Positions 9,178 through 31,580 of a stretch of DNA of 32,000 nt are shown here, in pieces. The DNA comes from Promethearchaeota archaeon (GTDB lineage Archaea; Asgardarchaeota; Hermodarchaeia; Hermodarchaeales; Hermodarchaeaceae). Position 1 is the first letter of the stretch, and each line of letters opens with the position of its first letter. The notes under the pieces are model-generated. The model was not told the origin of the DNA. It did no database searches and was given only the letters and a program-made list of their open reading frames with translations. The position numbers and the translations under genes are program-made. Location of the stretch: positions 30,001 to 62,000 of the forward strand of contig JBHLMI010000011.1 of NCBI GenBank assembly GCA_048938295.1. The letters are read 5' to 3'.

Positions 9178-9179
9178 GG

Positions 9180-10068: not shown

Positions 10069-10494
10069 ATGGTGGGAGCACCACACGAGATTGCCATTGG
10101 TTTGTTTTTTCTTTCCGGCCTGGTGATGCTGATTATCATGGCCTTCATTGCGGCAGGAATATGGAGTGTGCAGAAGCGACGCTATCAAAAGAAAGCTACT
10201 GAACTTGGTGTTGTGGTGGATCTCTCGAGTAAAGAATCATCAATTGATCCCTATGCGATTGAAGGATGTGGGTATTGTGTAGCGTTTGTGATCATTATTA
10301 TTTTAGCAGCGTTAGGCGTTTCGTTACCCATTATTTTACCGGGAGATGTCCAGACCCTTCTTGTCCTTATTGTGTCCCTTGTGTTGGGCGGTATGTGTTG
10401 GGGCGCCTCAATCTGGAGTTTCTATTATATTTACAAGATTCCAGCGAAATTTCAATCAATCATTGATGAAGCACTTGATATGACTGAAAAATAA
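10069..10494 (+). CDS. Hypothetical membrane protein
   Basis: 141 aa with 3 hydrophobic segments, divergent from nikM. No family recognised. Confidence 0.6.
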   Translation: MVGAPHEIAIGLFFLSGLVMLIIMAFIAAGIWSVQKRRYQKKATELGVVVDLSSKESSIDPYAIEGCGYCVAFVIIIILAALGVSLPIILPGDVQTLLVLIVSLVLGGMCWGASIWSFYYIYKIPAKFQSIIDEALDMTEK

Positions 10495-10640
10495 CTCACC
10501 TTCTAGCCACAGATTATATCTCTGGGTTACTAAATTTGGGCTTTCTTCAAGGCTAAGGAACCCGTTCTAATTCCATCTTCTAGAAGCGGCCCGTAGAGCA
10601 CCAATCAATCCGGGAAGGTGCTGGTAGGGCGAGAACGTTG

Positions 10641-11855
10641 TTACAGTGTTTTGCGCTGCATTGTTTCTTTGAGAAGGATTGAGATGAGTAACGCGAGCAG
10701 GTCGAGGACGAGAAGGAGCATCATGGCCCAGAAGAAGGAGTAGAATAGCGAATTTACCAAATCCATTGCGAGAATAAGGACGATGCCACCGGCTTGCCCA
10801 AAGATCATAAGAACGCCAGCAGAGGTGCCTTCAGGAATGGGTTTTGTCATTTCAGCCCCCGTTTGCAGTCCCAAGGGTAATGCGGGCATGAGGAAAAATC
10901 CTAACAGGAAGGCGGATACTAGTAGTACGATGTAATCGGGATGATAGGCTAGCATGAAGGTGAAAGGTGCGGCAAGTAAGAGGGCGAGGATGATAAACGG
11001 TTTACGACGCTGATATTTATCGGACAAAGTGGGAATGATTACCGCTCCGATGATGCCCCCAAGAATGATGATGGCACCTACTATTCCTGCTTGAGTGATA
11101 TCAATAACTCGTCCTGCAAGAATTTGTTCAATCCATGTAGCAATGCCGTTAAAGATGCCCAAACCAACGAAGAAGAGCACTATCAGAATAATGAATTGTC
11201 TGATTCCGATGATTTGACGAAGCCCTTTGAGCATCTTTTCGTCTTCGGGTTCATCGAGTTCCGGAGGAGACGGCGGGTGCTCTTTAGCGACGAATAGAAA
11301 CAAAACCGCTGCGATGACAGCGATCACCGCATAGCTGAGCATGGTATAAAAGAACCCAATGCCGACAACCGCAAAGGGGGTGACTAATAATCCAAGCATA
11401 ATTCCAAGAAAAATGGCCATTGTACCTAATCCCGTGGCAAGGCCCCGCTCCTTTGCCGGAAACCAACGGCGCGCAATTTTGGTAGGGCTGTTAAAGACAA
11501 AGGGTTGTCCAATTGCGATACCGCCTGATAAGGCCAATAAGAGAAGATAGTTGGGGGCAAATACGCGAAATACAGCAAATACTGCGGTGATTATTGCACC
11601 GACACCAGCGGCGTATCGAAAGCCTTTACTGTCGATTAGATACGCCGAGGGGATCGAGACCGGGATGTAGACAGCCATGAAAATTAGTGAAAGCAGTGCC
11701 ACATCGAGCTCGGTCACCCCGTAGAGACTGGCGACCATTGAAGAAATCGGTGCAAAGGTGATCCATAAGATCTGTGTAACTGCTGCAATGAACATAAACA
11801 CTAACAAAACAATCCAGCGATATCCATAAACAGGCGCTTCTGTTGCTTTAGTCAC
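10641..11855 (-). CDS. MFS transporter (FLVCR/SLC49-like N-terminus)
   Basis: 12 TM segments, YGYRWIVL and WITFAPI motifs, and MFS loop motifs. SD AGGTGG precedes the GTG start. Confidence 0.88.
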   Translation of the reverse strand: MTKATEAPVYGYRWIVLLVFMFIAAVTQILWITFAPISSMVASLYGVTELDVALLSLIFMAVYIPVSIPSAYLIDSKGFRYAAGVGAIITAVFAVFRVFAPNYLLLLALSGGIAIGQPFVFNSPTKIARRWFPAKERGLATGLGTMAIFLGIMLGLLVTPFAVVGIGFFYTMLSYAVIAVIAAVLFLFVAKEHPPSPPELDEPEDEKMLKGLRQIIGIRQFIILIVLFFVGLGIFNGIATWIEQILAGRVIDITQAGIVGAIIILGGIIGAVIIPTLSDKYQRRKPFIILALLLAAPFTFMLAYHPDYIVLLVSAFLLGFFLMPALPLGLQTGAEMTKPIPEGTSAGVLMIFGQAGGIVLILAMDLVNSLFYSFFWAMMLLLVLDLLALLISILLKETMQRKTL

Positions 11856-11953
11856 GAAATAACCACCTAGACAACCTGGTCTACGATTCGAATCAATAGA
11901 CTACTAGTCACAAATGGGCTAGGACTTTCTAATATACCTAGCTATCTTCGTGT

Positions 11954-12649
11954 TCACAGGGATTCAGGCTGCTCTTTTTTCAGCCATTCTCGTAAGAAGC
12001 TAAGCATCCGCTTGTTGGCTAGAGAAGCTGCAGCTGCATTGTAAGCGTCTTTTACATCTTCTTCGAAGAACCAATGAGACGTGTGGGGATATTCATGAAA
12101 GTCGATTACCCCTCGTCCCGCAGCTAAGCGTGTTCGCAGTTTTTGCATGGCCTCCGGTCCTGACCCCCATTCATCATTTTCCGCAAAATGCCCTTGAACG
12201 GGAATCGTAAATTCTCGGAATAGACCTCCTGCAACACCATAGAACAAAACCACCGCACCGACATCTTTTGCCTTTGTTCGAGCAAGATTCATTGCAAAGC
12301 GCACACCCAACGAAAAGCCAATAATGCCGATTTTCTCACCATCCACTGCAGGATGGGATTTCATGAACTCCGCAGCCATTTTGACCTGTTTCTCTGCCTC
12401 CTTTCGATCCAGTTGGCCACTGAGCGCTTTCGCCGTTTCTACGCTAGTGGCTACCTGCCCATTATAATAATCTGGAGCAAACGTGATAAACCCCTCTCCG
12501 GCCAACCGCTTGGCAAGACCTTTAAAGAATTCATTCAGGCCCCACCATGCAGGTAACAGCAAGAGACCAGGTCCTGACTGATTCTTTGGGAACGTTAGAA
12601 CACCGGCGACTGGGCTCTCAAGAAACTGGAAAATTACAGTAGAAGTCAT
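11954..12649 (-). CDS. Dienelactone hydrolase family protein
   Basis: WWGLNEF, APDYY, nucleophile elbow GFSLG, HFAENDEW and YP.TSHWF. Confidence 0.85.
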   Translation of the reverse strand: MTSTVIFQFLESPVAGVLTFPKNQSGPGLLLLPAWWGLNEFFKGLAKRLAGEGFITFAPDYYNGQVATSVETAKALSGQLDRKEAEKQVKMAAEFMKSHPAVDGEKIGIIGFSLGVRFAMNLARTKAKDVGAVVLFYGVAGGLFREFTIPVQGHFAENDEWGSGPEAMQKLRTRLAAGRGVIDFHEYPHTSHWFFEEDVKDAYNAAAASLANKRMLSFLREWLKKEQPESL

Positions 12650-12722
12650 GATATTGTTCCCTCCCTCAAACCGTTATCTACTTTTTCCACTAGATTTTGA
12701 AGACAGTGCGGTTGGTCCAACT

Positions 12723-13547
12723 TTATCGGTGCCTGGTTTCTACTCTATCGAGCCATTCGTTCACTAGACTGTTGAACAGTGTTGGTTGTTCCAGTTGGAG
12801 CGCATGACCGGCTTGGTCGAGTACCGCGAAGGTCGCTCGGGGGTAATTTTCAAGGATAGTCCAAGCATCGCGGTAACCCACCCAATGATCTTGGCGGCCT
12901 ACAATAATCAGAGTTGGTTTGTCAAAACGAAATTCGGGGGGATTGAGCGTGAAGCTGAATTTATCCTTTCGTGGGTCCAATCGTGCTAGAAACGTCGTGT
13001 CAGCGATTTTCACAGCGGGAGTGATTTCTTGGGAATAGCGGTGCCAATGATTGCGTGTCTGTATCACCGCTACTTCCATGAACCCTTCACGGTCTTGCGG
13101 GGGTAATTCTGCTAAGAAATCCTTCTCCCGTACAATCACGGTTTTTGTGGGAAGGGCTCTTTGTTTGGGATTCCCAATGGTGCGGGGCACGATTAAGAGA
13201 AGCCCGTTTACCCGGTCAGGTTTCTTATTGACTAGCCCTTGCGCAAGATACCCTCCATAGGAAAGCCCAGCTACGACAAATTGCTCCTTGGGAATTATTT
13301 TGTCGATAAAACCAAACAAGAGCTCTAATACGTCATTCGAGGTTTTTATCCAGTCAATTCCGGGTGTTTTTCCATGTCCCGGTAAATCAGGATAGATTCG
13401 CTGCCATCTCTTTCGGGACTTGAATATTGGCTCCAATGATCCAACCATTGAGCGATGGTCAAGGGTAGAACCATGAAGTGAGATAATTGGGGTGCCTTCT
13501 CCAAAGACTTTGTAGTGAATAGGGACATCTCGCACTTCGCATATCAT
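12723..13547 (-). CDS. Alpha/beta fold hydrolase
   Basis: LHG oxyanion motif, DLPGHG, GLSYGG (Ser nucleophile), GRQD (Asp) and AGH (His). Confidence 0.9.
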   Translation of the reverse strand: MICEVRDVPIHYKVFGEGTPIISLHGSTLDHRSMVGSLEPIFKSRKRWQRIYPDLPGHGKTPGIDWIKTSNDVLELLFGFIDKIIPKEQFVVAGLSYGGYLAQGLVNKKPDRVNGLLLIVPRTIGNPKQRALPTKTVIVREKDFLAELPPQDREGFMEVAVIQTRNHWHRYSQEITPAVKIADTTFLARLDPRKDKFSFTLNPPEFRFDKPTLIIVGRQDHWVGYRDAWTILENYPRATFAVLDQAGHALQLEQPTLFNSLVNEWLDRVETRHR

Positions 13548-13723
13548 CGATTACACCTCACTTGATGAAATGGGTAACAGACACAGGTAATCTATCTTGT
13601 GATACATACTATTGGACTTTTCTTAAACCATAATCTGATTTCATTTGCCAGATAGATGAAAACGACGACTAGCGTGATGAACAGGATAACACAGCACTCA
13701 AGAAGCTATTGACCAGCAAAGGA

Positions 13724-14659
13724 TTACCGTGGTTTGTAAAGGTCTGTGCTCAAGTATTTTAGCCCTGAATCGTTTAGCAACGTGACGACGGTGGCTTTCG
13801 GTCCTAATGTTTTCGCGATCCTAATGGCTGCTACCACATTGGCACCTGACGAAGTACCTGCGAAGAGTCCTTCCTCTCGTGCTAAGTGTTGAGCCATCTC
13901 TTTGGCTTCCTGTGTGGAAACTCGCATTATCTCATCAATCAAACTGGGCTTCCACAACGGGGGTATAAACCCAATACCGATTCCATCGATACCATGAGCT
14001 CCCCTGCTCCCACCAGACAACACAGGTGATTCGTTCGGTTCAACAGCTACTATTTTCACATCTGGATGCTGCTTTTTCAAAACCATCGCGGTTCCCATGA
14101 GCGATCCTGCCGTCCCAACGACTTGGACAAAGGCATCAACCGTTCCCTCTGTTTGCTCCCAAATTTCTTCACCGAGGGCAAAATATCCGGAGATCTGGTC
14201 TTGGTTATACAGTTGATTTGTCCAGTAGGTTTCAGGTGTTTCACTAATTTTGCGCGCTTTTTCAATCATTGCCTCAATTAATTCCTTGGTTATCCCGCGT
14301 CCATGACTCGGAATAACTGTTACTTCCGCACCTAAAGCCTGCATATGATCCAGTTTATCACGACTAAAGGCATCCGAAGAGATTATCCGAAGCCGATACC
14401 CTTTCGCTGCACAAATAAATGCTAACGATGTGCCCGTACTTCCCCCGGTATATTCAACTACCGTTCCACCCGGTTTCAACCGCCCATCTTGTTCGGCTTT
14501 AACAATCATTGCTTGTGCCATACGATCTTTCATGCTCCCCGTTGGGTTTTCCCACTCCAACTTTACAAGCACACGGGCATATCCCTTTGGAACCACTTGC
14601 TGCAACTGCACCAATGAAGTATTCCCAATGGCGGCTAGAATATTCGCTTCACTTTTCAC
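13724..14659 (-). CDS. Cysteine synthase family PLP enzyme with atypical substrate loop
   Basis: IGNTSLV, NPTGSMKDR (PLP Lys) and DSGLKYLST. EYTGGSTG replaces the canonical EPTSGNTG. Confidence 0.88.
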   Translation of the reverse strand: MKSEANILAAIGNTSLVQLQQVVPKGYARVLVKLEWENPTGSMKDRMAQAMIVKAEQDGRLKPGGTVVEYTGGSTGTSLAFICAAKGYRLRIISSDAFSRDKLDHMQALGAEVTVIPSHGRGITKELIEAMIEKARKISETPETYWTNQLYNQDQISGYFALGEEIWEQTEGTVDAFVQVVGTAGSLMGTAMVLKKQHPDVKIVAVEPNESPVLSGGSRGAHGIDGIGIGFIPPLWKPSLIDEIMRVSTQEAKEMAQHLAREEGLFAGTSSGANVVAAIRIAKTLGPKATVVTLLNDSGLKYLSTDLYKPR

Positions 14660-14730
14660 GCAGCCAACCAGCTACCTCCAACTGCGTCTCTAAAGCCTAA
14701 ATATCTTATTCCAAGTTAATGACGCAACAG

Positions 14731-14805
14731 TAGGCCATTATGTTGCGTTTCGAAGACATACATGCCTAGGATTTTTCAAATGATGCGAAAATTAGCGTTG
14801 TTTCA
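14731..14805. repeat. Dispersed intergenic repeat, copy 2
   Basis: Direct match to 1519-1576. 14731-14768 can fold as a hairpin (TAGGC/GCCTA, TATGT/ACATA). Confidence 0.85.
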
Positions 14806-14807
14806 AG

Positions 14808-16037
14808 TCATTCAGTGGGTTTTATGCGTAATCTGTAGAGGAGTAACAAAAGGGGAATTAACAGGAGGCTGCCACTAGCAATAAGGAATGCATAGAGGTA
14901 ATTATTTCCACTGGCTGCAAGGAGAAAACCAACAGTGATTGGTCCCAGGACTTGTCCTACATCCATAATGGTGCTGAGAAGCCCGAGTGCTGTGCCTTTC
15001 AATTTGTGGTGCACCACCTCGGTGATAAACGGGATAGTTGCAGAAACTACCCCTGCCATCGCTAACGCCATGGGAACGATTACACCGATTTGAATCAGAG
15101 GATAGGGAAGCAACACCAGCAAGATAGTGAATACACACATCGCAATAAGTCCCCCAATAATGAATACCTGTCGCCCATATCGATCGGATAACGCTCCGAG
15201 GGCTGGGCTTGAAAACAGGAGTATAGCGGTAAATAGGGATAAGAGGGGGCCGGTCATCCACTCAGCAATTCCGGCGTTGGTCGTCCAGTAGAGGGGCATG
15301 AAAAATTCGAAAGCCCCATACAGGAAGAACACAGCCGCTTGAGCCAAGCAAATTAACAACACCTGGACGGTTGTGACCTGTCGTAACATTGCAAAGTTCA
15401 TTCTTTCTTCAGAAACCGGCTCAAAATCCTGCCTGTGCTTCGTGGTAAGTGAGAACACAAGCGTTAATCCAAGCGCAATGAGGCCGAATACGCCACATGC
15501 CAAGTAGACTCCTTGGTACACATTGAGGCTCAGTACAGCGAATATCGGGAACGCCAGTAACAGTCCTCCTACGAGGGGAGCCAGCATGCGACCCACACGT
15601 GTTGATGAGGAATAGGTAGCCATCCGCTCTCCACGACGGCTCGTATACAAACCCGCCACTATTGCTAGGGCAATCGGACCAAGAATAGCGGTCGCGAATC
15701 CGTGTAGAAATCGCACCCAGAAGAGCTGCTGCGGTGTAATAATGGGGAGATACAAGAAGGGAACAAATGCTACAAGTAGGATTGAAATCCAAAGCATCCC
15801 GCGTGGTCCTTTTCGATCTGCTACCATTCCTGCCGGGATACTGACGAGAATTCCTGGAATTGTCGAAGCAGCTGCAATGAATCCCATCTGCTCAGGGGAA
15901 GCACCCAGAAATCCAGCAAAAAAGGGCAGCACAGGTGACTTGGACATCGTCGTACTCAAAATTGCGACTGCACCAATAGCCGAAAGCAGCACCATGGGGG
16001 TGAAGGTCTGAGATTTCGACCCCGATTCCTGTGCCAT
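14808..16037 (-). CDS. MFS transporter
   Basis: 12 TM segments, with GMVADRKG and GALSDRYGR loop motifs. The start overlaps the upstream stop (TAATG). Confidence 0.9.
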   Translation of the reverse strand: MAQESGSKSQTFTPMVLLSAIGAVAILSTTMSKSPVLPFFAGFLGASPEQMGFIAAASTIPGILVSIPAGMVADRKGPRGMLWISILLVAFVPFLYLPIITPQQLFWVRFLHGFATAILGPIALAIVAGLYTSRRGERMATYSSSTRVGRMLAPLVGGLLLAFPIFAVLSLNVYQGVYLACGVFGLIALGLTLVFSLTTKHRQDFEPVSEERMNFAMLRQVTTVQVLLICLAQAAVFFLYGAFEFFMPLYWTTNAGIAEWMTGPLLSLFTAILLFSSPALGALSDRYGRQVFIIGGLIAMCVFTILLVLLPYPLIQIGVIVPMALAMAGVVSATIPFITEVVHHKLKGTALGLLSTIMDVGQVLGPITVGFLLAASGNNYLYAFLIASGSLLLIPLLLLLYRLRIKPTE

Positions 16038-16576
16038 TATAAAGATCCCCCCGGAATTGATGGAGGCAATCGCTCACGCAACGTGGTATAGATCAGGTGG
16101 AACCGCTCTTCACGGTTCAACGGAACCAATTGTTCATGAAGTTCTTCACGAACCCGACGCAACAGCAACCCAGCATATAATGCATCCAATACAGTCAAGC
16201 CCTTTTGTACCGCGTCCTGGTCGTTGTCACCCAGAAACGCTAAACCACTCAATGTCAACTCCACTCCACGCGCATCCGGAGCCCTATCCAAATCTTTCTG
16301 AATATCCGCTGAATGAATTATTGCGGCCATATCCTGCAACACCGGATCTGTCAGCGCATAGTGCTTCACTAACACCTCGAAGGTACACATGTTATCGTGA
16401 TGGGTAAAAGGAATATCTAGGTCAGGAAAATCAAACGGCGTTCCATCCTCCTCAGCAAGTACTGCACCTGGCCACGACACAAACTTGAACTCCGCATCTA
16501 GATCAATAAACCGTTTTATCAACCACGGACATGCCACCCGATCTACATGTACATGGGCACGCGTAACCCAACGCAT
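16037..16576 (-). CDS. Chromate-resistance ChrB C-terminal domain protein (ChrB/ChrF-like)
   Basis: MRWVTR..VHVDRVACPWLIKRFID and FTH...CTFEVL...Y.L.DP motifs. No N-terminal DNA-binding domain. Confidence 0.85.
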   Translation of the reverse strand: MRWVTRAHVHVDRVACPWLIKRFIDLDAEFKFVSWPGAVLAEEDGTPFDFPDLDIPFTHHDNMCTFEVLVKHYALTDPVLQDMAAIIHSADIQKDLDRAPDARGVELTLSGLAFLGDNDQDAVQKGLTVLDALYAGLLLRRVREELHEQLVPLNREERFHLIYTTLRERLPPSIPGGSL

Positions 16577-16727
16577 AACAAGACCTCTAACAAATCAGGA
16601 AATACGATGACGCTACTTATACTCCTGAAATTAATAAAGCCAGCAGTTAGTATCCAATGATACCAATGACGTGAAAGATGATTTGTATTAAATCGCATTC
16701 TGAGAAAAATGCATAGACACAGCGGTT

Positions 16728-17354
16728 TTACTTTGGATATCCTATTGTTTGTGCGAATAGTACCCTTTGGTTGGGTCGCAGGTTGAATTCCGTTGCGATA
16801 CTAGCCGTATCACAATTATGGAACCAAGTTGCGAGTCCTTCTGACGCTGCAAAGAGGTAGATGTTTTGGGCAATAAAGCCGGTATCAGTGTAATAGTACG
16901 ATTTCTGAACTTCAGAGTCTCCAATGCTTGGGTCTGGTTGGTTGGGTCCCAAATCATAGCGGGAAAAATTGACAACATAGAAGATATTTACGGGCGTTTT
17001 ACTTGTGAGGCTCGCGGCCCGAGGGCTGCAGGAGAGGCTGCGAAAGTCCTTTGCGGAAATGGGGGTCAGTTGATGCGGACTTGCTTCGTACAAATAGAGG
17101 CCATCTTTCAATGCTACGTACAGGTCAATTTCTTGCGAATTGCTTGCTGAAGGCGCTGTCCGTCCAGGTTTGCTAAAAGCTCCCGTTTTACGGTTTACGC
17201 CAAAGGCTGCCCAAAGCAAGTTGGAAAGCACCTGAAGTGGGAGCTCTCTTGAGCTAATATTTCGGTCCGTCTGCCTGAGGTGCAAAGCCTCCAGTAACGT
17301 TTTCCCACCTGTTTTCTCAGGTTTTGGTAGAATAATTGGTTCCATTTTACTCAT
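16728..17354 (-). CDS. Nitroreductase family protein (SagB/ThcOx-like)
   Basis: EAL..R.T.R, LSNLLWAAFG, RTAPSASNSQ and GFIAQNIYL.A motifs. Start is 17354 or 17345. Confidence 0.85.
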   Translation of the reverse strand: MSKMEPIILPKPEKTGGKTLLEALHLRQTDRNISSRELPLQVLSNLLWAAFGVNRKTGAFSKPGRTAPSASNSQEIDLYVALKDGLYLYEASPHQLTPISAKDFRSLSCSPRAASLTSKTPVNIFYVVNFSRYDLGPNQPDPSIGDSEVQKSYYYTDTGFIAQNIYLFAASEGLATWFHNCDTASIATEFNLRPNQRVLFAQTIGYPK

Positions 17355-17362
17355 CTTGTCTC

Positions 17363-18187
17363 CTAATTTTGTTCCCATTTTTGGTAGACCGCTTCGATGC
17401 CATCGCCTACGACTTCAATGTCGGTAATCTCGCCTATGCCGGCTTCATGGAGCCACCTAACATGATCGATGGTATGGGGGTCGATGCCAATGCACCGGGC
17501 GGCGGTGGCGTCGGCAGCGACTGGGTCGACACTGGCGATGATGGTGTCCATCTTCACAGGGGTTCCACTCCATGGACCCGGACCTGATTTGCCGTAGAAG
17601 CCATCGATGACGCTGAGCGTGGGGGGGAGGGTCTTACAGATATCGTAAACAAAGTTGTTCGTGCCGAGTGGGTGCAAGCCATATTTGTTCCGAATGGTGA
17701 GCATCCCGAACATATTCTTCAACCCCATCGTAATCGTGGTATGCTGCAAGGTCTTCATGGAAGGCACAGTGATAATGGCAGATTCGACGGCGAGTCGAGC
17801 CACTTTAAACTTCGCTAGCGCCTGGTGGTCTGTGACCTCGAGTTCCACCTTATCTTTGAGCTTACGCATGTTGATGTACTCGGACCCCAAGCGTTCAATG
17901 ACCTCCATCATTCCGGTCTCAACAATCGCGTCATCCGGTGAGGTGGTTCCTCCTTCGGTCTCTACCACGATCGCCTTTTTGTCTAGGTCCTGAACTTTCC
18001 TAATCACCGCCTCCACCACGACAGGATCCGTGGTGATGCCGGTCTCAAAGGTGTGGTCAGTGATTAGATTGGGCTTAACTAAGACCGTATCATACGGCTT
18101 AAGGGCTTCTTGGAATGGAATTAGATCTATTGCCCGAAAGACCGGTTTAAGACTTCGTTCTCCCTTAACGACTGCGACCAATGACAT
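17363..18187 (-). CDS. DUF362 domain protein
   Basis: VLVKPNL, TTDPVVV.AV, MGLKNMFG and DPVAADA motifs. Confidence 0.85.
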   Translation of the reverse strand: MSLVAVVKGERSLKPVFRAIDLIPFQEALKPYDTVLVKPNLITDHTFETGITTDPVVVEAVIRKVQDLDKKAIVVETEGGTTSPDDAIVETGMMEVIERLGSEYINMRKLKDKVELEVTDHQALAKFKVARLAVESAIITVPSMKTLQHTTITMGLKNMFGMLTIRNKYGLHPLGTNNFVYDICKTLPPTLSVIDGFYGKSGPGPWSGTPVKMDTIIASVDPVAADATAARCIGIDPHTIDHVRWLHEAGIGEITDIEVVGDGIEAVYQKWEQN

Positions 18188-22904: not shown

Positions 22905-23456
22905 CTAGTGTAGCTTGATCTGCTTCATTTTTCGTTGGGGGCTAGGTTCCCGTTTGGGTATTTCCAGGTTTAAGACACCATTTTCCATGGTGCCTTCCGC
23001 GAGGTCGGGGTCGACTTCTTCGGGGAAGTTGATGGTTCGTTGGCTAGCAGAATAGCTTCGTTCGCGGTGCACAAATTCTTGGTCGTTTGCTGCTTTTTCT
23101 AATTTTCTTTCTGCGCGGATGTTCAATGTGTCATTGTTCAACTCGATTTTGACCATTTCCTTGCTATATCCGGGGAGTTCTGCTTTGATCAAGTATTGGT
23201 GGCCCTGATCGATGATATCGACAAGGGCTGCTCGAGTCGGCAAGGCATCCATTCTACTTGGCTCCCATGCTCGCATCGGGAGGAAGGGCGCCATCATATT
23301 GTCGAAAGATCTCTTGAAGTCGTCGAAGAGGGAATCAAATCCGCGGTAGAGGCGGTTATCGTTTCTCGGTTCAACCGCTACTCGTTGTTCGTTCATAGGA
23401 GAAGTTACGATGGCTTTTTTAGCTGCTGTTTGTCTCGACGTGTTTACTACCTTCAA
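22905..23456 (-). CDS. hsp20: Small heat shock protein Hsp20
   Basis: Alpha-crystallin motifs AELPG, ERSYS...R.I.FP and MENGVL.L.IPK. Start is TTG 23456 or ATG 23396; the ORF extension to 23552 overlaps the promoter. A T7 run (minus strand) lies at 22880-22886. Confidence 0.9.
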   Translation of the reverse strand: MKVVNTSRQTAAKKAIVTSPMNEQRVAVEPRNDNRLYRGFDSLFDDFKRSFDNMMAPFLPMRAWEPSRMDALPTRAALVDIIDQGHQYLIKAELPGYSKEMVKIELNNDTLNIRAERKLEKAANDQEFVHRERSYSASQRTINFPEEVDPDLAEGTMENGVLNLEIPKREPSPQRKMKQIKLH

Positions 23457-23503
23457 TTTACAACTTTTTGTAGTAAACCTTATATTACTAACTTGCTTAT
23501 AAA
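23457..23503 (-). promoter_or_regulatory. hsp20 promoter: TATA-like box plus palindromic operator
   Basis: TTTATAAG (minus strand, 23503-23496) and TTTACAAC-N5-GTAGTAAA (23457-23477). Confidence 0.7.
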
Positions 23504-23602
23504 TATATCGGTAAAACACATCTCTCATAGCGAATAATTGCCCAAAGATCAATCAAATCCAAGAATTACTCTAATGAAATGGGGCCTTGAGGTTCGTTAG
23601 TT

Positions 23603-24349
23603 TTATTCGAACAGGGTGGTGTCCAGGCTTGCTTTTAATTCGCTAATTATCTCTTTTACAGTGGCTTCCCGCAGATTCAACACTTCAGAAATACGTCTTA
23701 TGCTGTCGTCATGGGAATCAATGGCATGGTGCAAGACGCGGCGGGCATCGGGGCTATCAATTTGCTGCACCATCTTGCGGGTTTCTTTCATCACGCTGTT
23801 TCGAATGTAAAGGAGAACCAGTTTTTCTTCTTCGAGGTAATCGAGGTGTTCATCTATATCTGTTAGAATCTCTGCTAAGTGATCGATTTTCCTCTCTTCT
23901 TTAGGATATTTGAAAAGTTCCTTCACTCGATTCAGGAAGGCTGCTGCCTTTTCAGAAAGGGTTTCTTGGTCTGGCTCTACATCAAAGGCTATTACTTTCT
24001 CTTTGAAGAGATGTGGACCGATGTTCACCATGATAGCGAGGCTCTTGTTTAAGAAGTAGATTCGCCGTTTGGGTCCTTGAGGGCTTGTTTCTTTAGCAGA
24101 CTCAACGAGCTGTGCCTTTTCCATGATTTTAAGATGTTTGGCGACAAGTTGTTGACTTAAATTGAGGTCTTTGGCAAGCTGGAGAGGGTAATTGGGTTCT
24201 TGGCTTAAACGTTGGATAACTAGTCGGCGAATGGGGCTGTCTAAAATTCGCAAAATTGAATCGAGCTCGGTATCGCGTCTCGGTTTGACTCCAGTTTCCT
24301 TTCCTTTTTTGGAAGTTGATACAATCTTTTTTTTGCTCTTACTATTCAT
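23603..24349 (-). CDS. ArsR-type winged-HTH heat-shock repressor (Phr/HSR1-like)
   Basis: ILDSPIRR...LSQEPNYPLQLA..L...VAKHL..ME and GPKRRIY motifs, with a C-terminal coiled region. Adjacent to hsp20. Confidence 0.8.
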   Translation of the reverse strand: MNSKSKKKIVSTSKKGKETGVKPRRDTELDSILRILDSPIRRLVIQRLSQEPNYPLQLAKDLNLSQQLVAKHLKIMEKAQLVESAKETSPQGPKRRIYFLNKSLAIMVNIGPHLFKEKVIAFDVEPDQETLSEKAAAFLNRVKELFKYPKEERKIDHLAEILTDIDEHLDYLEEEKLVLLYIRNSVMKETRKMVQQIDSPDARRVLHHAIDSHDDSIRRISEVLNLREATVKEIISELKASLDTTLFE

Positions 24350-24445: not shown

Positions 24446-26140
24446 TCACGCTGTAACAACCTCAATTTTGAGTTTGGGTTTACTAATCACTTCACGTTGT
24501 TCTTTGAGGATGTTTCGGGCAATGTCTAAGGCTGTTTCATCATCGTAGACGCCTTGAGCGTTTTTCCGTGCTTCTTGGAGCATCTGACGCTGCACCTTGA
24601 GTTTCAAATCCCCAATGGTCAACGCACCAATACCATAGTTTTCAGGAATTAGCTCACGAAAATCATCTGTAGGAGTTAGAGATTCGATTCCACTTGGAGG
24701 TACAGCATTTACATCCAATAGAATTTTTGTCCCTAAAACAGATTGCAGCTGTTCGAGTGATACTAATTGAATACCCGGAGAGCCAACAGCGAAAATAAGG
24801 TTAGCATCCTCTAGAAGTTCATGAAGGTCATCAGGTGAAGTTGATTGCACGCCTTCCACTTTATTACTCTCGATTGAGGCCCGGTGCGCTACTTCTCTGG
24901 CCCGGTCAATATTTCGTGAGGTTAATACTGTCAGCGCTCCACTCTTGGAAAGTAAATGAGCCACACTTTCTCCAACTGGTCCTGTACCTGCAAGAACTAA
25001 CGCAATGTTACTTTTGAGTGAACCTTGGTTAAGTCTGCGCAGAGCTTCCTCAGCTTTGGCAACCATAGCCGCCGCCGTGGAAAATGCACCGTGTGGATCA
25101 ATAATTACTGCCGTTTCGAAAGGTTTCACCATGGCCTTTTGAATTCTGTCTGCCATTTGACGAGCAAGGGAAACCTGACGTCCTCCAACAAAGAAGCAAA
25201 GATGCTTTACTCCCTTGGTTCCCCTTGAAAAGATAGCATCTTGGACTAAGTCTTGAATCCGATCAAGCGACACTCCAGAATATGGAACTACAACATCAAA
25301 TCCTGCGTCGTACGCTACACAGATATCAAACGGGCTAGCGTGGTCATCCGCTTCTAGGAAAAAAAGAATGTCACTTAGTTTTGTTTTTGGGCGCTTAATC
25401 ACTGGCACAACAGAAACCGAAGAAACTCCTGTGAGCTCCGTCATGCCTTTCATTTCCTCTTTTGGCACTTCTGAAAGAATTCGTTTGAAGCTTATAGGGA
25501 CCACATCTACCTCCAAGGATTGCAAAAGTTCCATTAAACCTTGGAAATGTCTGGGGCTGCTCAAGTGAAACGTGGTTATTCGCTTCTTCTTAAGAAGTTC
25601 AGCTTGTTGTAAAATCCCCATAGTAATCCAGCTTTCACGGATTCCAAATTGTACTTGTCTAATTTCCTCTTCAAGTTCATCGTGCAAGTACTGACCATAG
25701 GCGACAAGCCGATCTATTTTGTCTTGCACACTTGGAGTTATTTTTTCATCTGATAGGATTCTTAACCCGTCTAAGACCTCATTGCGCTTTTCCAGTTTCA
25801 ACTTGATACTCCGTGAGAGGTATGAGTGAGCGAACTCGTCCATTTCAACCGCATAAAAAGGGATCTTTAATTTTGAGAATACATCCGCTACTGGGTTGTC
25901 TTCACGGAATTCCTTCAAGCTCCGCAGACCCAATTCATCGGTGGCAAAATCTGGTGACTCTGATTCAGCAATCTGCTTGATCATATCGCAATAAGCCATT
26001 GAAGGGCGTTTTATTGCAGAAATCTTCGATTCAGATTCAGAAGGAGGGGAATGAATGAGCCAAGGTTCGTCATAGGCCTTTCTAATTAGGAAGACCCGCA
26101 ATTTTTTCCCACTTAAAGGGGCAAGCTCTAACGTTTTCAA
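24446..26140 (-). CDS. mtd: NAD(P)-dependent methylene-H4MPT/H4F dehydrogenase (MtdA/MtdB-type) fused to an N-terminal ~220 aa domain
   Basis: The C-terminal ~310 aa carry SPFDICVAYDAG, QDAIFSRG, TAAAMVAK, LAGTGPVG, DVNAVPP.GI and GIGALTIGDLK. SD AGGTGA precedes the TTG start. Confidence 0.85.
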   Translation of the reverse strand: MKTLELAPLSGKKLRVFLIRKAYDEPWLIHSPPSESESKISAIKRPSMAYCDMIKQIAESESPDFATDELGLRSLKEFREDNPVADVFSKLKIPFYAVEMDEFAHSYLSRSIKLKLEKRNEVLDGLRILSDEKITPSVQDKIDRLVAYGQYLHDELEEEIRQVQFGIRESWITMGILQQAELLKKKRITTFHLSSPRHFQGLMELLQSLEVDVVPISFKRILSEVPKEEMKGMTELTGVSSVSVVPVIKRPKTKLSDILFFLEADDHASPFDICVAYDAGFDVVVPYSGVSLDRIQDLVQDAIFSRGTKGVKHLCFFVGGRQVSLARQMADRIQKAMVKPFETAVIIDPHGAFSTAAAMVAKAEEALRRLNQGSLKSNIALVLAGTGPVGESVAHLLSKSGALTVLTSRNIDRAREVAHRASIESNKVEGVQSTSPDDLHELLEDANLIFAVGSPGIQLVSLEQLQSVLGTKILLDVNAVPPSGIESLTPTDDFRELIPENYGIGALTIGDLKLKVQRQMLQEARKNAQGVYDDETALDIARNILKEQREVISKPKLKIEVVTA

Positions 26141-26296
26141 TTAATCACCTGCCTATATTAGGCAGTTAAGGCTTCTTCCCATCTGAGAAAAAGGCGATGA
26201 AAATTTATTTTAGATGAAAAAAGACAATTTTTATAGTCAAGCTCGTTGCCCAAGGCAAATTGTGAACTAGATCGGGGCAGATATCTTAAGTTCAAA

Positions 26297-27640
26297 TCAT
26301 GTTTTTCGTTCTCCAGCTTCTCTAAATCTATAATCTGTATGAGCTGCACAAGAAACGCAGGGATCAAAACATCGAACAGCCATCATAGCCCGTTCAAGGA
26401 TTTTTTCATTTGGCCAACCAAGATTTATGCAAGCACTCATGACGTTTTGTACAATCACCGCTATCGCACGGGCATTAAGCTCTGTTGGCACTCGAATGTC
26501 GATATCTTTGATTCTGTTGCTACTATTTGTACTTACTCGGTAAAGGAGAATTCCCCGTGGAGCTTCAACTGCACTAGCTCCGATTCTAGTTCCTGGTGTC
26601 AACCCAATTGAAGAGTCTTCATCTTTCGACCATTCTGTTTCCAACAGGTTGATTGCATTTGTGAGAGCGAATTCCATTTCGTCAATTCGAAGAAGCCCGG
26701 TTTGGAACAGGTTAGGCACTCCTATGTACGATTTCTTACTTTTCGTTGGCTTAGACTGAAGTACAGCTAGTCGGGCATAAGGCCCCGCTAAGAGATTCTT
26801 GGATTCGTCGTTTGATTTGATGTAGACAACTTTTGTGGGGGCATCTAACAGGTCCTGCTCCACTAAGTATTCAGAGAAATCATCACAGGCAACGGTTTCA
26901 TGTGTTCCATCATCAGAAATGAAATGGACCTGATTAAGACCAGAAAACCGGTTGGCCTTTGTTTCAAAGGAGCTAATATAAAGTGGAAGAGGAAGTGCAT
27001 AGTGTTGGATTTCCTCTTCGATTTCATCTAGTAGCGAATTGTAGTATTCTTTAGTCCATTTCACTCCCGAGAGCGTTGAAGAAAGTTGTTGGATAAGATC
27101 TTGCTGTTGAGTGCTATTGATGTTTTGAACGACTCCACCTGGAATCAGGTTAAAGGCTAAATTAGTATTACCTGCTGTTGCGGTGATTAACGCTTCTGCA
27201 CACTCGTATAATTTTGTAGCAATTGGTAGAACTCGTGGTTGCATGCGATCAATGCCAAGGATGTCTTGTCGAGAGATTTGGTTTGTAAGATACATCAAAT
27301 CAGCCAAAGTAGAAAAGAACACACTATATGTGTGCGATCGGATGATTTCTCCCAAGAGCGCCAGTTCGCGGATTAACTCGGCAATTGGGGGAATTGATAC
27401 ATCTGTAGTCGATTCAATTGCTTTTATTGCTCCTATTCTATGGGCAACTGGACAAATTCCACAGATCCGCGGAACAATTTTTGGTAAGTCATTAATGTGT
27501 TGTCCAATTAGAACGTTCAAAAAGTCCCGTGCCGTTGGCATGTTATATACAACATTTGTTATGCGATCTTTGTCTCGCGTTACAATGAGCTTGCTTTCGC
27601 CTTCTATCCGTGTCATTGGTAAGGATAGTCGAATTTTCAT
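26297..27640 (-). CDS. mvhA: Group 3 [NiFe]-hydrogenase large subunit (MvhA-like)
   Basis: L1 RICGICPVAH, L2 DPCVSCAAH plus a 13 aa cleavable extension, EAPRG and VPT..N. ATGA overlap with the small-subunit gene. Confidence 0.88.
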   Translation of the reverse strand: MKIRLSLPMTRIEGESKLIVTRDKDRITNVVYNMPTARDFLNVLIGQHINDLPKIVPRICGICPVAHRIGAIKAIESTTDVSIPPIAELIRELALLGEIIRSHTYSVFFSTLADLMYLTNQISRQDILGIDRMQPRVLPIATKLYECAEALITATAGNTNLAFNLIPGGVVQNINSTQQQDLIQQLSSTLSGVKWTKEYYNSLLDEIEEEIQHYALPLPLYISSFETKANRFSGLNQVHFISDDGTHETVACDDFSEYLVEQDLLDAPTKVVYIKSNDESKNLLAGPYARLAVLQSKPTKSKKSYIGVPNLFQTGLLRIDEMEFALTNAINLLETEWSKDEDSSIGLTPGTRIGASAVEAPRGILLYRVSTNSSNRIKDIDIRVPTELNARAIAVIVQNVMSACINLGWPNEKILERAMMAVRCFDPCVSCAAHTDYRFREAGERKT

Positions 27641-28371
27641 TGTTTAAACTTCAGCTCCGGTTTTTGATATCTAAAAGCGAGAGCCGCATACTTACGAATG
27701 GCGTCGCTGACTTTTATGAGAGAGAAGAAATTAGCGAGAGTCGAGGGTAGATTCCGGTCTATGGCACCCATACAGCCATCACAGGGAGTGGCTCCCTTAA
27801 TACAAAGGGCTTCACACCCTGCACGGGTTATTGGGCCTAAACAGAGTATTCCCTCGCGTAAAAAACAGCTTTGGGGAGGGCGTACGTTATGTAAGGACGT
27901 TATCTCAACATCAAATGCTTGATCTTGGGCAAACGGGCATTCTCCACACACGTTTTTGTCAGGGAGTTCGATTTCAGAACCATCAATTGCGCTCATCAAC
28001 AGATTTCCAAGTAACTTTCGTGGTGGCGGACAGCCAGGTAATGACATGTATAAGTCAACGAATTTACTGATGGGATCTATACGCATGTTGGGGGATTGGC
28101 TCATTATTCCACCGAGAACGGCACAGCTTCCCAAAGCGATGATTTTGGTTCCTGCGGTCCATAGTCTTCGAAGAAGTTCCGCGTCTTCATCTCGAGTGAC
28201 TCCACCTTCTACAAATGCGATATCTAAATCCGTGTCAACTTGAACATCAGAGATTAATCGAAACACACGAATATCAACTGATTTAAGGAGTTCAGGGAAT
28301 AGGGCGCTACCAAGTATGGCAAACATACACCCGCTACAGGAGTTTAGTTGAAGAAAACCAATCTTAGTCAT
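27637..28371 (-). CDS. mvhG: Group 3 [NiFe]-hydrogenase small subunit (MvhG/HydD-like)
   Basis: SCSGC, VEGG, GSC, PGCPP, VCGECP and CLGPITRAGCEALC...PCDGCMG. TAATG overlap with the upstream gene. Confidence 0.88.
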   Translation of the reverse strand: MTKIGFLQLNSCSGCMFAILGSALFPELLKSVDIRVFRLISDVQVDTDLDIAFVEGGVTRDEDAELLRRLWTAGTKIIALGSCAVLGGIMSQSPNMRIDPISKFVDLYMSLPGCPPPRKLLGNLLMSAIDGSEIELPDKNVCGECPFAQDQAFDVEITSLHNVRPPQSCFLREGILCLGPITRAGCEALCIKGATPCDGCMGAIDRNLPSTLANFFSLIKVSDAIRKYAALAFRYQKPELKFKQ

Positions 28372-30899
28372 TAGCCTAATAGCTCCTCTAATTCAGTGGA
28401 AAATTGATTGACCTGGTTCGCGAACACGTGACCTTCAACGGCTGACACATTCAATACGCGTACACGTTTTTGTAGTTCGTCTCCATAAAAATCTGCGAGA
28501 ACACCAATTCGTGTCTGAGCCTTCTTGATACCCTCAAAGAACCGGCAAGCTGTTTCATGACAGCCAACAACCATAACACCATCAAATCCGTGGTTTAACG
28601 CTGTTATTACATAATTTGCATCGATTGAACCCGCGCATGGCAGTCTAATGACCATTGCACCAGGATCATAGTCCAGTCGACGAATGCCTGCATTATCCAC
28701 TGCCGGGTATCCACATGAGTTGCAGGAAAACACAATTATTCGGGGGGAGGCTGTGCTCATTGAGAGGGCATTCATTGCAGCTTGAACCTCCTCCTGAATT
28801 GGAGGGGAAGCCAGAGCTCCGGTTGGGCATATTGCGATGCAGGCTCCACAGCCTTCACATTTTAGCGTATCGATACGAAGTGTGTCAGCTATGATGGCGA
28901 GAGCGTTAAAGGGACAGGACTCTACACAGAGATTACAAAGCCCACATTTTTCTTGATTAATTTGAATTGGTATGTCCCCTGCAGGGAGGCTATCTTTTCC
29001 TAATAGAAGAAGAACTTCTAATGCGGTATCTCGAGAATCTGCTACTAAGTCGGCATAAGCTTTAGGACCAGTTATAGACCCACAAGCCCAAATACCTGAG
29101 GATAAGCTCTTTGGGTCAATGAAACCTCGTCTATCCAAGGAAAAATTCGTCATACTACGAAGGGTTAGCTGTTGGTCTCCTGGCGTCATACCCATATTGA
29201 GAACAATAAGATCTGCTGGGAATGAATTTGAATCAGTTTGGATTAAGCGTTTATGCCCCCGATGAATGATCTTAATGCTTTCACAAAAGTGAATATGAGA
29301 ATATTCTGGGATGAAGGTGCTTCGATCAGGGGGAATTAAGGCTATCTGGTAAAGGACATTGATGGAAGTATTGGGCGCCTTTTTTTCTACAATCTCTAGG
29401 TATTTGAGCGCGAGGTTACAGCAGTAGTTTGAACAAGCCTTGGTTCGGTTCTGACATTGAAGAACAATTATGGAACGGGCAGGTTGGCCGGTTGTTGGGC
29501 AGATTATATTGCCTCCTGTTGGTCCATCAGGCGCTAGCATACGTTCAAATTCGGATGAAGTGATAATATCCTTAGCAGGGTTATATTGAATTGCTCCTTG
29601 AGATGGCAAGGTTTTAGGATCGCATACTTCTGCGCCTGTTGCAAGAATTATGGCACCAACCGTGAACTTCTTGGTTACAGGTTCTTGATCAAGATTAATC
29701 GCTTTAGATGGGCATGCTTTTTCGCATTTTCGGCATGTCCGGCAAAAATCAATATCCTCCTGTTCAATGACGGGTCTACTAGGATATGCGGCAGGGCAAG
29801 GCACATGGATGAGTTTACGTTGGCTAATATGGTACTCAAATGCATCTGGACGAGACTCAGGACACGTATCGACACAAGAGCCGCACATTATGCATTTTGA
29901 TAAATCGACATATCGGGGCTGTTGCAGAGCAGTAATCTCATAATTGCCAATTGTTCCTGAAATATCGGAGAGTTCGGTATTAGTAAGAATTCGTATGTTC
30001 CCTGAAAGCATAACTGAGGATACATCCTCAGCAATCATACATGGACCACAATCGATAGCCCCATAGATGCTTTCCCATCGCCGCGCGATTCCACCTAGAC
30101 ATGACTCTTTCTCTAGCAGAATAATGGAATAGTTGGATTGAGCCAAAACCTTGGCAACCTCTACTCCAGCTAGTCCACCACCAATGATGGCGGCACTTTT
30201 CCGAATTGGTAACGTACGCTTTGGAATTGAGACCCGATGCCGGAGCATCTCAGCGCTGGCCCGTATTAGAAGTAACGCTTTTTCTGTGGCTTGCTCGGGT
30301 TTATTTCTATGAACCCAAGCACAATGTTCACGTATGTTCGCGAATTCAATGGGTATATCCAATTGCATTCGAATAGCGGTAAACATTTGGCTGTGAAGGT
30401 GAGGGGAGCAGGCTGCAATTACAAGATTATTCAGAAAATACCGATCACACCATGCTTTTAGTTTCTCAACGTTTTCTAACAAACATAAATGCTGAAACAC
30501 CATTGTACGTTCAACATATGGCAGATCATTGACTTTCTCCATAAGCTCCCCGACATTAATGGCTTGATGAATTTCCTCCCCACAAGAACAGACAATTACG
30601 CCAATACGGAAAATTGCTCCTCGTGAATCCGCTTCGCTCAGATCGATTGCCTCTCCGGCCATCAATTGTTCCTTGGCGGTCATTAGGCGGATTGCATTTG
30701 TTCCTGCGGCGGAAAGTTGATAGAAGCCATTCCGTTTCTCTATGAACCCCTCCAGTTTTTTGAGATGATAATTGAAGAGACCTGTTTTCGTGAGCCCTAA
30801 TCTTTTCATCAAATCATTATAGGTGATTAGTCGTTCAGCGTCTAATATTCGAAGAATTTGTTCGCGGAGTGGATGGGCCAAAGCCGCATATACATTCAT
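28371..30899 (-). CDS. hdrA: Winged-HTH - HdrA - MvhD fusion protein
   Basis: Residues 1-75 are wHTH-like (HPLREQILRIL...FNYHLKKL...YQLS..G). HdrA motifs follow: CSCG, AACSP, NIREHCAWVH, GGGLAG, DCGPC, two ferredoxin pairs, EFERML and CSNYCC...K. The C-terminus is MvhD-like (CNSCGY, RLPCAG, GCH...CRF). Confidence 0.9.
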   Translation of the reverse strand: MNVYAALAHPLREQILRILDAERLITYNDLMKRLGLTKTGLFNYHLKKLEGFIEKRNGFYQLSAAGTNAIRLMTAKEQLMAGEAIDLSEADSRGAIFRIGVIVCSCGEEIHQAINVGELMEKVNDLPYVERTMVFQHLCLLENVEKLKAWCDRYFLNNLVIAACSPHLHSQMFTAIRMQLDIPIEFANIREHCAWVHRNKPEQATEKALLLIRASAEMLRHRVSIPKRTLPIRKSAAIIGGGLAGVEVAKVLAQSNYSIILLEKESCLGGIARRWESIYGAIDCGPCMIAEDVSSVMLSGNIRILTNTELSDISGTIGNYEITALQQPRYVDLSKCIMCGSCVDTCPESRPDAFEYHISQRKLIHVPCPAAYPSRPVIEQEDIDFCRTCRKCEKACPSKAINLDQEPVTKKFTVGAIILATGAEVCDPKTLPSQGAIQYNPAKDIITSSEFERMLAPDGPTGGNIICPTTGQPARSIIVLQCQNRTKACSNYCCNLALKYLEIVEKKAPNTSINVLYQIALIPPDRSTFIPEYSHIHFCESIKIIHRGHKRLIQTDSNSFPADLIVLNMGMTPGDQQLTLRSMTNFSLDRRGFIDPKSLSSGIWACGSITGPKAYADLVADSRDTALEVLLLLGKDSLPAGDIPIQINQEKCGLCNLCVESCPFNALAIIADTLRIDTLKCEGCGACIAICPTGALASPPIQEEVQAAMNALSMSTASPRIIVFSCNSCGYPAVDNAGIRRLDYDPGAMVIRLPCAGSIDANYVITALNHGFDGVMVVGCHETACRFFEGIKKAQTRIGVLADFYGDELQKRVRVLNVSAVEGHVFANQVNQFSTELEELLG

Positions 30900-30973
30900 C
30901 TTGGGGTCCTTCTCGTGATTTCTGTGGAGAAATACCTTAGATAACTCTAATTGTCAAGAAACATAACTTAGAC

Positions 30974-31004
30974 AAAAAAGCTTGCCCTGTTTAAAAAGGC
31001 AAGC
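30974..31004 (-). terminator. Stem-loop plus T6 run (terminator of the zinc-finger gene, or an operator flanking the hdrA TATA box)
   Basis: Minus strand GCTTGCC-N11-GGCAAGC-TTTTTT. The loop contains TTTTTAAA. Confidence 0.45.
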
Positions 31005-31041: not shown

Positions 31042-31272
31042 TTACATCTTTTTACTCTCAGAAGTAGGAATGGGAGCACGATAGCGCGTTTGATAGCAAT
31101 TGCGGCAAATGTAGCGAGGCATAACGTTAAGCGCACCACACCATGGGCATTTCCAAAAATCGATCGTTGTTAGTGTCACATCGGCCTCACGTCGGATATA
31201 ACGACAATGCTGGCATAAACGTAAATGAATAAAATTTGATACTCCACATTTCGGACACGTCCAATACTTCAA
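31042..31272 (-). CDS. Small protein with two RanBP2/NZF-type zinc fingers
   Basis: WTCPKCGVSNFIHLRLCQHC and WKCPWCGALNVMPRYICRNC both fit W-x-C-x2-C-x3-N-x6-C-x2-C exactly. Likely start is TTG 31272 after GGGGTG; the ORF is open to 31287. Confidence 0.82.
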   Translation of the reverse strand: MKYWTCPKCGVSNFIHLRLCQHCRYIRREADVTLTTIDFWKCPWCGALNVMPRYICRNCYQTRYRAPIPTSESKKM

Positions 31273-31580
31273 ATTCCACCACCCCACGAGGATCTCTTAT
31301 TGCTACTTTCTCATTAAATCTCCTAAGTTGTGCTATAGGATGCGCGGGTTTCATAGCGACTCTATATTGATTTCAGCCGAATCTTCACATCCTAGCATAT
31401 AGTAGGAGGGAACGAAAAAACAAAAACACTCTGAAAAACATCATTTCCAAAGTGTGACAAATAATTTTATCTTGAGCTTGTTGTCAATCTTGACAAACGC
31501 TTTCCAAATATCAGCAGAAACGCGATTCTGTGATGGTTTTTCGTAGTATTATGAAAATTAAGCTTTCATAGTGTTAGACT

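Follow-up and report, generated by a model that had tools for sequence, protein, structure and literature searches.

We analysed a 32,000-nucleotide (nt) stretch of DNA from a Promethearchaeota archaeon of the Hermodarchaeaceae (assembly GCA_048938295.1, contig JBHLMI010000011.1, positions 30,001 to 62,000), here called the window, and concentrated on one gene at 24446..26140 (-) that lies downstream of a hydrogenase-HdrA cluster. The gene encodes a fusion protein of 564 amino acids (aa) in which an N-terminal domain (the N-domain) is joined through a linker to an MtdA-like dehydrogenase domain. A preliminary description of this DNA had read it as one continuous 564-aa open reading frame (ORF) separated from mvhA by a 156-nt gap (26141-26296), and both points stand, with orthologues of 557-580 aa across the Asgard archaea. 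The reading frame begins with TTG. We consider this start call to be correct because the N-terminus MKTLELAPL is shared by orthologues and, in one congener, ATG takes the place of TTG. A ribosome-binding-type motif, GGTGAT, is located 4 nt ahead of the start codon at 26144..26149 (-); its GTGAT is invariant in four of four congeners, while the first G differs in one.

Residues 258-544 (24509..25369 (-)) form an MtdA/B-type NAD(P)-dependent methylene-tetrahydromethanopterin (methylene-H4MPT) dehydrogenase domain. They align end to end with solved structures of MtdA (6tlk, 6tge and 1lu9; E 5e-40, chain residues 5-287), and the Pfam family Mpt_N (PF09176) matches residues 270-349 with 101.2 bits against a cut-off of 27, covering profile positions 1-80 of 81. 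These matches bear out the earlier assignment of a full MtdA/B-like domain. The domain is 40-45% identical to stand-alone enzymes of about 300 aa. With its extra N-domain, the protein does not have the usual 290-300-aa size of single-domain MtdA or MtdB, which is a difference of architecture and not of catalysis. The Rossmann dinucleotide-binding motif GTGPVG (residues 385-390, 24971..24988 (-)) aligns with AGTGPVG of MtdA. The tripeptide TSR, which had been noticed after the second Rossmann strand, is indeed found at its end (residues 407-409, 24914..24922 (-)), opposite G-R-K of MtdA in the alignment, and the site has no acidic residue. In Rossmann folds generally, the lack of an acidic residue at the end of strand 2 fits NADP, and by this rule the fusion enzyme probably uses NADP(H). 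Its substrate would be H4MPT, judging from the pathway genes of the same genome that are described below.

The closest known counterpart is MtdA of Methylorubrum extorquens AM1, which is NADP-dependent and acts on methylene-H4MPT and methylene-tetrahydrofolate (PDB 1LU9, 1LUA, 6TLK, 6TGE). The likeness covers the whole-enzyme alignment, Mpt_N, GTGPVG and the basic residue after strand 2. However, the fusion is archaeal and about twice as long, carrying a partner domain of about 220 aa and a linker at its N-terminus, and it belongs to an anaerobic H4MPT Wood-Ljungdahl context beside an F420-dependent Mtd. Public records name the fusion proteins simply as NAD(P)-dependent methylene-H4MPT dehydrogenase, and in the literature we found no description of the fusion, of the additional domain and its paralogs, or of their linkage. 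What is new is thus a variant of a known MtdA-type enzyme together with an undescribed domain family.

In every locus examined, the N-domain is accompanied by an MtdA-like domain; we refer to this combination as the module. Three arrangements occur. Most simply, the N-domain is N-terminal to the MtdA domain in proteins of about 557-580 aa, with orthologues across the phylum. The reverse order is found in the metagenomic protein P0072 (496 aa), with the MtdA-like domain first and an N-domain-like region at residues 318-486. Finally, in 14 of 14 stand-alone loci, an N-domain gene of about 242 aa directly precedes an MtdA-like gene of about 330 aa, and in these split forms the MtdA domain is preceded by an extension of 27-48 residues, which, compared by length, is about that of the linker. 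In most lineages, profile searches of the fetched loci additionally reveal a second N-domain paralog (about 205-226 aa) directly ahead of the fusion or split pair; the fusion occurs without this paralog in the window's own family (f1) and in families f31, f3 and f13.

We related these arrangements using a quick maximum-likelihood tree of the Mtd domain, rooted at its midpoint, in which the stand-alone enzymes were sampled from proteobacteria and no characterised methylotroph sequence was included. The split forms are nested inside a fused clade (support 99), P0072 lies outside the Asgard fusion clades, and the sampled proteobacterial enzymes form a separate clade. Independent fusions, fission and permutation are a classic sign of two domains that physically work together. 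Because fusion, fission and permutation all occur here, we expect the same of the N-domain and the dehydrogenase.

Two kinds of locus depart from the usual module. In one (L063; G148:C8:254000-273900), the module is duplicated in tandem at 7314-13149, with the order N-domain paralog and fusion, then two N-domain paralogs and a second fusion; all of these genes are oriented divergently relative to wHTH-hdrA/mvh, and the locus has four operator-like sites of the type described below. Elsewhere, small ORFs of 80-92 aa match the N-domain profile in its helical-hairpin part only (L068 5074-5316, L069 12724-12984, L077 12877-13143, L080 4544-4822 and L081 4939-5199). An operator-like site is located about 100 nt upstream of the small ORF in L068 and L080. 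In L077, sites lie just downstream of it, ahead of an N-domain-like ORF of 196 aa, and at the small ORFs of L069 and L081 none was detected at one mismatch or less.

The N-domain itself (residues 1-220, 25481..26140 (-)) is an Asgard-restricted alpha/beta domain. The sequence strings quoted in the preliminary description are all present, namely SPDFATDELG at residues 62-71, KIPFYAVEMD at 92-101, IRESWI at 167-172 and SSPRHFQGLMELL at 194-206. Pfam gave no match to residues 1-255 at an E-value of 10, nor to 26 members of the family at an E-value of 1; NCBIfam gave no match to the N-domain, and neither did the sequences of the PDB when searched by phmmer and with a family profile. An exhaustive phmmer search of 1.84 billion representative proteins found the N-domain in only 58 clusters. 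Named members are almost all from Asgard archaea (Hod-, Hermod-, Thor- and Promethearchaeota), with a few labelled Bathyarchaeota or Bathyarchaeia, labels that are unverified. Among 400 genomes of the window's phylum, 142 in several families encode it. The N-domain is therefore an undescribed domain family that lacks a Pfam model and has a clear functional partner. A further copy, at G182:C72:9674-10438, has its reading frame broken by a TGA and a TAA codon. Either it is a pseudogene, or the TGA is possibly a recoded codon.

Conservation was considered at two levels. Within the fusion subfamily, the polar residues K21, E25, T67, E69, R168, E169, H192, S195 and H198 are invariant, and P196 belongs to the same conserved pocket; the polar residues sit on strands 1, 2 and 4, at their C-terminal ends, and on the RESW helix. 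In folds of this kind, the C-terminal ends of the strands are the place where ligands bind. Across the whole N-domain family, only L4, Y107 and W171 are near-invariant, and H192 and H198 are each missing from whole subgroups (H198 in some stand-alone subgroups). Since only those three residues are near-invariant family-wide, the pattern argues for a structural or regulatory role over a conserved active site.

An AlphaFold2 (AF2) model of residues 1-255, built on 22 orthologues, has a predicted local distance difference test score (pLDDT) of 78 and a predicted template modelling score of 0.73. In it, strand 13-20 is followed by a disordered insertion, helix 48-61, strand 65-69, short helices and strand 95-98, and then by a long antiparallel helical hairpin (residues 102-182, 25595..25837 (-), as assigned by DSSP on the model) located between strands 3 and 4. 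Strand 187-194, helix 196-208 and strand 212-223 complete the domain. The hairpin bears the invariant R168-E169-x-W171, and its database matches are of the coiled-coil type only. The linker (residues 221-257, 25370..25480 (-)) consists of a disordered stretch, with pLDDT below 50 for residues 221-244, and a conserved segment VSVVPVIKRP, in which P246 is invariant.

The preliminary description had proposed that the N-domain follows the motif order of the TraB/Tiki/ChaN/EreA fold while lacking the first His. The latter part is correct: after strand 1 the sequence reads IRKAYDEPW, and there is no counterpart of the His of TraB's GTxH motif (H18), which is invariant in 12 Asgard TraB proteins. On the former part, the observations point both ways. 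When the N-domain family was compared by profile-profile alignment with 12-14 Asgard TraB proteins, weak colinear alignments resulted (P 0.007-0.013), pairing PDFxTEELG with PDVVAVELD, RExWI with RDxYIA, and HLSSPRHFQG with VLGAGHIxG, whereas reversed controls gave P 0.54 and 0.66. In these alignments, at P of about 0.01, E69, R168 and H198 stand opposite the TraB Glu at the end of strand 2 (VAVELD), the RDxY Arg and the second His of GxGH. On the other hand, no family profile matches: TraB/PrgY/GumN (PF01963) found nothing in the whole genome at an E-value of 1, and Foldseek found no match to the N-domain model in the PDB at an E-value of 0.001 or less. A wide search was dominated by coiled-coil matches to the hairpin, and ChaN and EreC are not among its best 50 rows for the N-domain, which counts neither way. 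The only solved protein of the TraB family is the top match to the whole domain, spanning more residues and including part of the helical insert. In language-model features, the nearest named cluster is TraB/GumN with a score of 0.80, which is chance level, and other matches are only to Asgard hypothetical proteins.

Compared with the TraB/PrgY/GumN family, e.g., the Tetrahymena complex IV subunit (7W5Z chain E, 8B6H chain DQ), the N-domain fails the Pfam model and lacks the GTxH His, its insert is a simple two-helix hairpin, it has a disordered insertion of about 25 residues after strand 1, and none of its members is known apart from an MtdA partner. Taking these observations together, we lean slightly towards a TraB/ChaN ancestry for the N-domain.

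We next consider the metabolic context. The genome is 2.5 Mb in size and 91.6% complete, and it encodes Ftr, Mch, an F420-dependent Mtd, an F420-dependent Mer and CdhC; FolD and Fno were looked for at this completeness and not found. The F420-dependent Mtd (PF01993), known from methanogens, acts at the same methylene/methenyl-H4MPT node but has an unrelated fold and cofactor. It is encoded separately in the genome at C17:15813-16628, directly beside an FrhB-like gene (the pair occupies C17:15813-17270). Across the 400 Asgard genomes it occurs in 282, and in every family that has the module; families without it mostly lack the module, the sole exception being a single marginal match in f19. We considered the possibility that the fusion replaces the F420-dependent Mtd and rejected it, as both co-occur in every module-bearing family. 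Because F420-dependent Mtd and Mer are also present, the fusion is an additional enzyme at the methylene/methenyl-H4MPT node and not a substitute. In some other Asgard genomes (G241, G240, G114 and G112), the F420-dependent Mtd gene is located 4-12 kb from the module.

The cluster upstream of the fusion gene (26297..30899 (-)) consists of a fused hdrA/mvhD gene (28371-30899), mvhG (27637-28371) and mvhA (26297-27640). The HdrA-MvhD protein begins with a winged helix-turn-helix (wHTH) domain (DUF7347/HTH_20, residues 3-71), and 17 other Asgard loci share this architecture, wHTH included, with identities of 37-94%. The window's cluster has no gene for HdrB or HdrC. Just upstream of hdrA is a gene for an 81-aa double Zn-ribbon protein (31042-31287 (-)), found in the same place at 70-94% identity in the three congeners examined. 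On the other side, downstream of the fusion gene, an ArsR-type regulator gene (248 aa) and an Hsp20 gene occupy 22905-24349 (-); we rejected these as members of the module, as they are not kept beside it in congeners.

We surveyed synteny by comparing the window's proteins, using tblastn, with 34 loci from other genomes, some of which are related to each other and so are not independent samples; four of the loci end at a contig edge. The hdrA/mvhD-mvhG-mvhA cluster adjoins the module in 17 of the 34 loci, in five families, so the neighbourhood is not unique to the window's genome, and one more locus has the wHTH part only. It is co-directional with the module in f1 and f31 and divergent from it in f14, f20 and f21. 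Eight further f20 loci have other HdrA-like genes about 3 kb away. The one such locus that was annotated (L065; G188:C1:2046000-2065900), in a complete Loki-type genome, encodes at 12048-18109 an HdrBC-like protein (CCG and Fe-S), a double HdrA-like protein of 1037 aa, MvhD and an FrhB-like protein; another FrhB-like gene flanks the module from the opposite side (7270-8706). This flank looks like an F420-linked Hdr system in the hydrogenase's place. In f3 and f13, no wHTH-hdrA/mvh cluster or Mvh/HdrA homologue was found within about 9 kb of the module. The hydrogenase synteny is thus conserved, but not obligatory.

The spacer between mvhA and the fusion gene was aligned for four congeners. It contains invariant TTGAC...TTGTC arms around a variable stretch of 8 nt, forming an operator-like palindrome, TGACTA-N6-TTGTCT, at 26222..26239 (-), whose centre is about 91 nt ahead of the start codon. 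An invariant A/T box, AAAATAAATTTT, at 26200..26211 (-) is likely the TATA/BRE (B recognition element) region of the gene's own promoter. The box TATAAAAA (26228-26235), previously taken to be TATA-like, falls in the palindrome's variable spacer and is unconserved in congeners; it is probably not a TATA element. (A scan for sigma-70 promoters and terminators was set aside as not meaningful for an archaeon.) A second operator-like site, TGACAA-N6-TTATCT, is located near hdrA at 30939..30956 (-), with its arms largely kept in the alignment of all four congeners, and of three congener loci scanned, two gave such a site, at distances of 48 and 54 nt from hdrA on its upstream side.

The palindrome was first spotted in f14 loci, and we scanned the 34 loci (596 kb) for its core, TGACAA-N6-TTGTCA, allowing at most one mismatch. 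This yielded 37 sites where 1.3 would be expected under uniform composition, and their positions are not random. Sites are located 91-95 nt upstream of the fusion's start in f1 and f31, a range that becomes 91-152 nt when one f20 locus is included; in f31, the perfect core is 93-95 nt upstream. Before hdrA, the distance is 48-135 nt in the f1 and f31 loci; in divergent loci it reaches about 250 nt or more. In most other loci, the N-domain gene immediately before MtdA has sites 760-930 nt upstream; the paralog gene lies in between, and the sites are about 90-270 nt ahead of it. Operator-like sites also occur at modules without an adjacent hydrogenase and before small hairpin-only N-domain ORFs.

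Two other elements lie upstream of hdrA in the window. A perfect 16-nt palindrome, TTGTCAATCTTGACAA, at 31481-31496, about 200 nt upstream of the Zn-ribbon gene, is the sole perfect copy in the window. Its half-sites are those of the N6 operator in the opposite order and 2 nt apart. No copy of the perfect palindrome upstream of the Zn-ribbon gene, TTGTCAANNTTGACAA, is present at the Mtd promoter. In the interval between the Zn-ribbon gene and hdrA, at about 30975-31004, a hairpin GCTTGCC...GGGCAAGC is followed by a run of T; four species share AAACAGGGCAAGC, and the TTTTTGTCT after it, without change. This hairpin could be a terminator or attenuator, or a second protein site.

We propose, with a probability of roughly 60%, that the fusion is an extra, co-regulated, NADP-linked Mtd with a non-catalytic partner domain, and not a wired subunit of the hydrogenase. 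A soluble MtdA/B-type dehydrogenase would interconvert methylene-H4MPT and methenyl-H4MPT with NADP(H) while permanently paired with an Asgard-specific domain whose predicted structure is an alpha/beta core of Rossmann-like type plus a long helical hairpin. The partner is most likely a degenerate TraB/ChaN relative without the first metal-binding or catalytic His. It probably controls how the dehydrogenase assembles or how active it is, either by forming homo-oligomers, or hetero-oligomers with its paralogs, or by binding a small ligand in the pocket formed by K21, E25, T67, E69, H192, S195, P196 and H198. The fusion gene appears to be its own transcription unit, with a palindrome type common to its promoter and to the adjacent wHTH-hdrA/mvhD-mvhG-mvhA. 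Because the gene is its own unit and the palindrome also precedes the hdrA cluster, the link to hydrogenase-HdrA is most likely regulatory. The predicted regulator is a DNA-binding HdrA complex, which would sense H2 or redox state and set the expression of the fusion enzyme. An NADP(H) port would thereby be added at the methylene/methenyl node of a full H4MPT Wood-Ljungdahl methyl branch. It may supply NADPH from one-carbon (C1) flux or from F420H2, or run in reverse, with F420H2 and NADPH exchanged through two Mtds acting on one pterin pair.

It is important to note that several points weigh against this proposal. The members of the N-domain/MtdA family are known from their sequences alone, and binding of wHTH-HdrA to the palindrome is a prediction. 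The window's two sites each have two mismatches in 12 positions, and 130 such sites exist genome-wide; the N6 palindrome shows no enrichment across the window's genome at two to three mismatches. The operator argument for this genome therefore rests on its relatives, i.e., on orthologous position and conserved arms. In addition, the conserved pocket residues of the fusion subfamily could equally mean undiscovered catalysis, and the absence of Fno is read from a genome that is 91.6% complete.

The most substantial functional alternative is physical coupling, in which the N-domain docks the dehydrogenase onto MvhAGD-HdrA so that H2 oxidation, possibly with flavin-based bifurcation, directly drives the reduction of NADP+ or of methenyl-H4MPT; the preliminary description had similarly pictured a scaffolded C1 enzyme that links H2 oxidation to an NAD(P)-based methyl branch. 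Adjacency in half of the surveyed loci speaks for docking, as do the HdrBC-like, HdrA-like, MvhD and FrhB-like genes that adjoin the module where the cluster is absent, and the lack of HdrBC leaves the position of a high-potential acceptor vacant in the window's cluster. There are also precedents: MetFV-HdrABC-MvhD of Moorella and the Fwd-Hdr-Mvh supercomplexes of methanogens are C1 enzymes attached to Hdr, and MvhAGD-HdrABC and MetFV-HdrABC-MvhD resemble the present case in that a C1-pathway gene is kept beside hdrA/mvhD and a [NiFe] hydrogenase. However, the HdrA here bears a wHTH and its cluster lacks HdrBC, while the fusion has its own promoter and operator-like site. In MtdA, hydride passes straight from NADP(H) to the pterin or back, and the enzyme contains neither a flavin nor an Fe-S centre that could take up single electrons. 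Moreover, the constant partners of the N-domain are MtdA and its own paralogs, not Hdr. Because there is no electron-transfer cofactor, the gene is separate and often divergent, and the f3 and f13 modules have no hydrogenase found within about 9 kb, direct wiring is less likely, and we consider docking to be unlikely; the relation to HdrA/Mvh looks regulatory rather than that of a subunit. Nor does an alternative, NAD(P)-based methyl branch agree with a genome that keeps F420-dependent Mtd and Mer. It is also conceivable, but improbable, that N-domain proteins, whether fused, split or hairpin-only, are adaptor or signal subunits that bind wHTH-HdrA/Mvh and either report C1/NADPH status or take an H2 signal. 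If true, this would amount to mutual regulation between a hydrogenase-flavoprotein 'trigger enzyme' and a C1 dehydrogenase, a new kind of circuit in archaea.

Other alternatives concern the N-domain alone. It might be an active hydrolase of the TraB/Tiki/EreA type or a new C1-carrier enzyme, e.g., cyclohydrolase-like, making the fusion bifunctional with channelling as in FolD. The invariant polar residues of the fusion subfamily fit this idea, as does the alignment of a Glu, an Arg and the second His with invariant TraB residues. Yet the genome has a normal Mch cyclohydrolase, and the presence of two to three N-domain paralogs for each MtdA is more in keeping with a structural or regulatory subunit. 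Given a catalytic motif that is incomplete (the first TraB His is absent) and unconserved family-wide, with H192 and H198 lost in subgroups, an active hydrolase is improbable. Less easily set aside, although still somewhat doubtful, is the idea that the N-domain is unrelated to TraB/ChaN and represents another Rossmann-like domain (e.g., like the N-domain of tetrapyrrole methylases) with an acquired hairpin, its motif likeness being convergent or due to chance. Against it, the top whole-domain structural match is the solved TraB protein, the nearest named language-model cluster is TraB/GumN, although at a chance-level score, and two separate motif blocks are colinear with TraB while the reversed controls are at chance. 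This alternative is about descent alone, and the function that we favour, that of an additional, co-regulated dehydrogenase, would be compatible with it.

No known prokaryotes are more closely related to eukaryotes than the Asgard archaea, whose H2 and C1 metabolism has a central place in models of eukaryogenesis. Metabolic reconstructions from genomes usually show one 'Mtd' step. Our analysis indicates that many Asgard lineages have, besides the F420-dependent enzyme, a second one of the MtdA type that is probably NADP-linked and is tied to an undescribed domain family. This second Mtd adjoins redox modules of the Hdr/Mvh/FrhB type behind an apparent shared operator. It offers a testable handle on the balance of H2, F420H2 and NADPH, and on what a DNA-binding HdrA-hydrogenase complex controls. 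In these organisms, an NADP-linked carbon-fixation step is probably under the control of hydrogen or of the redox state.

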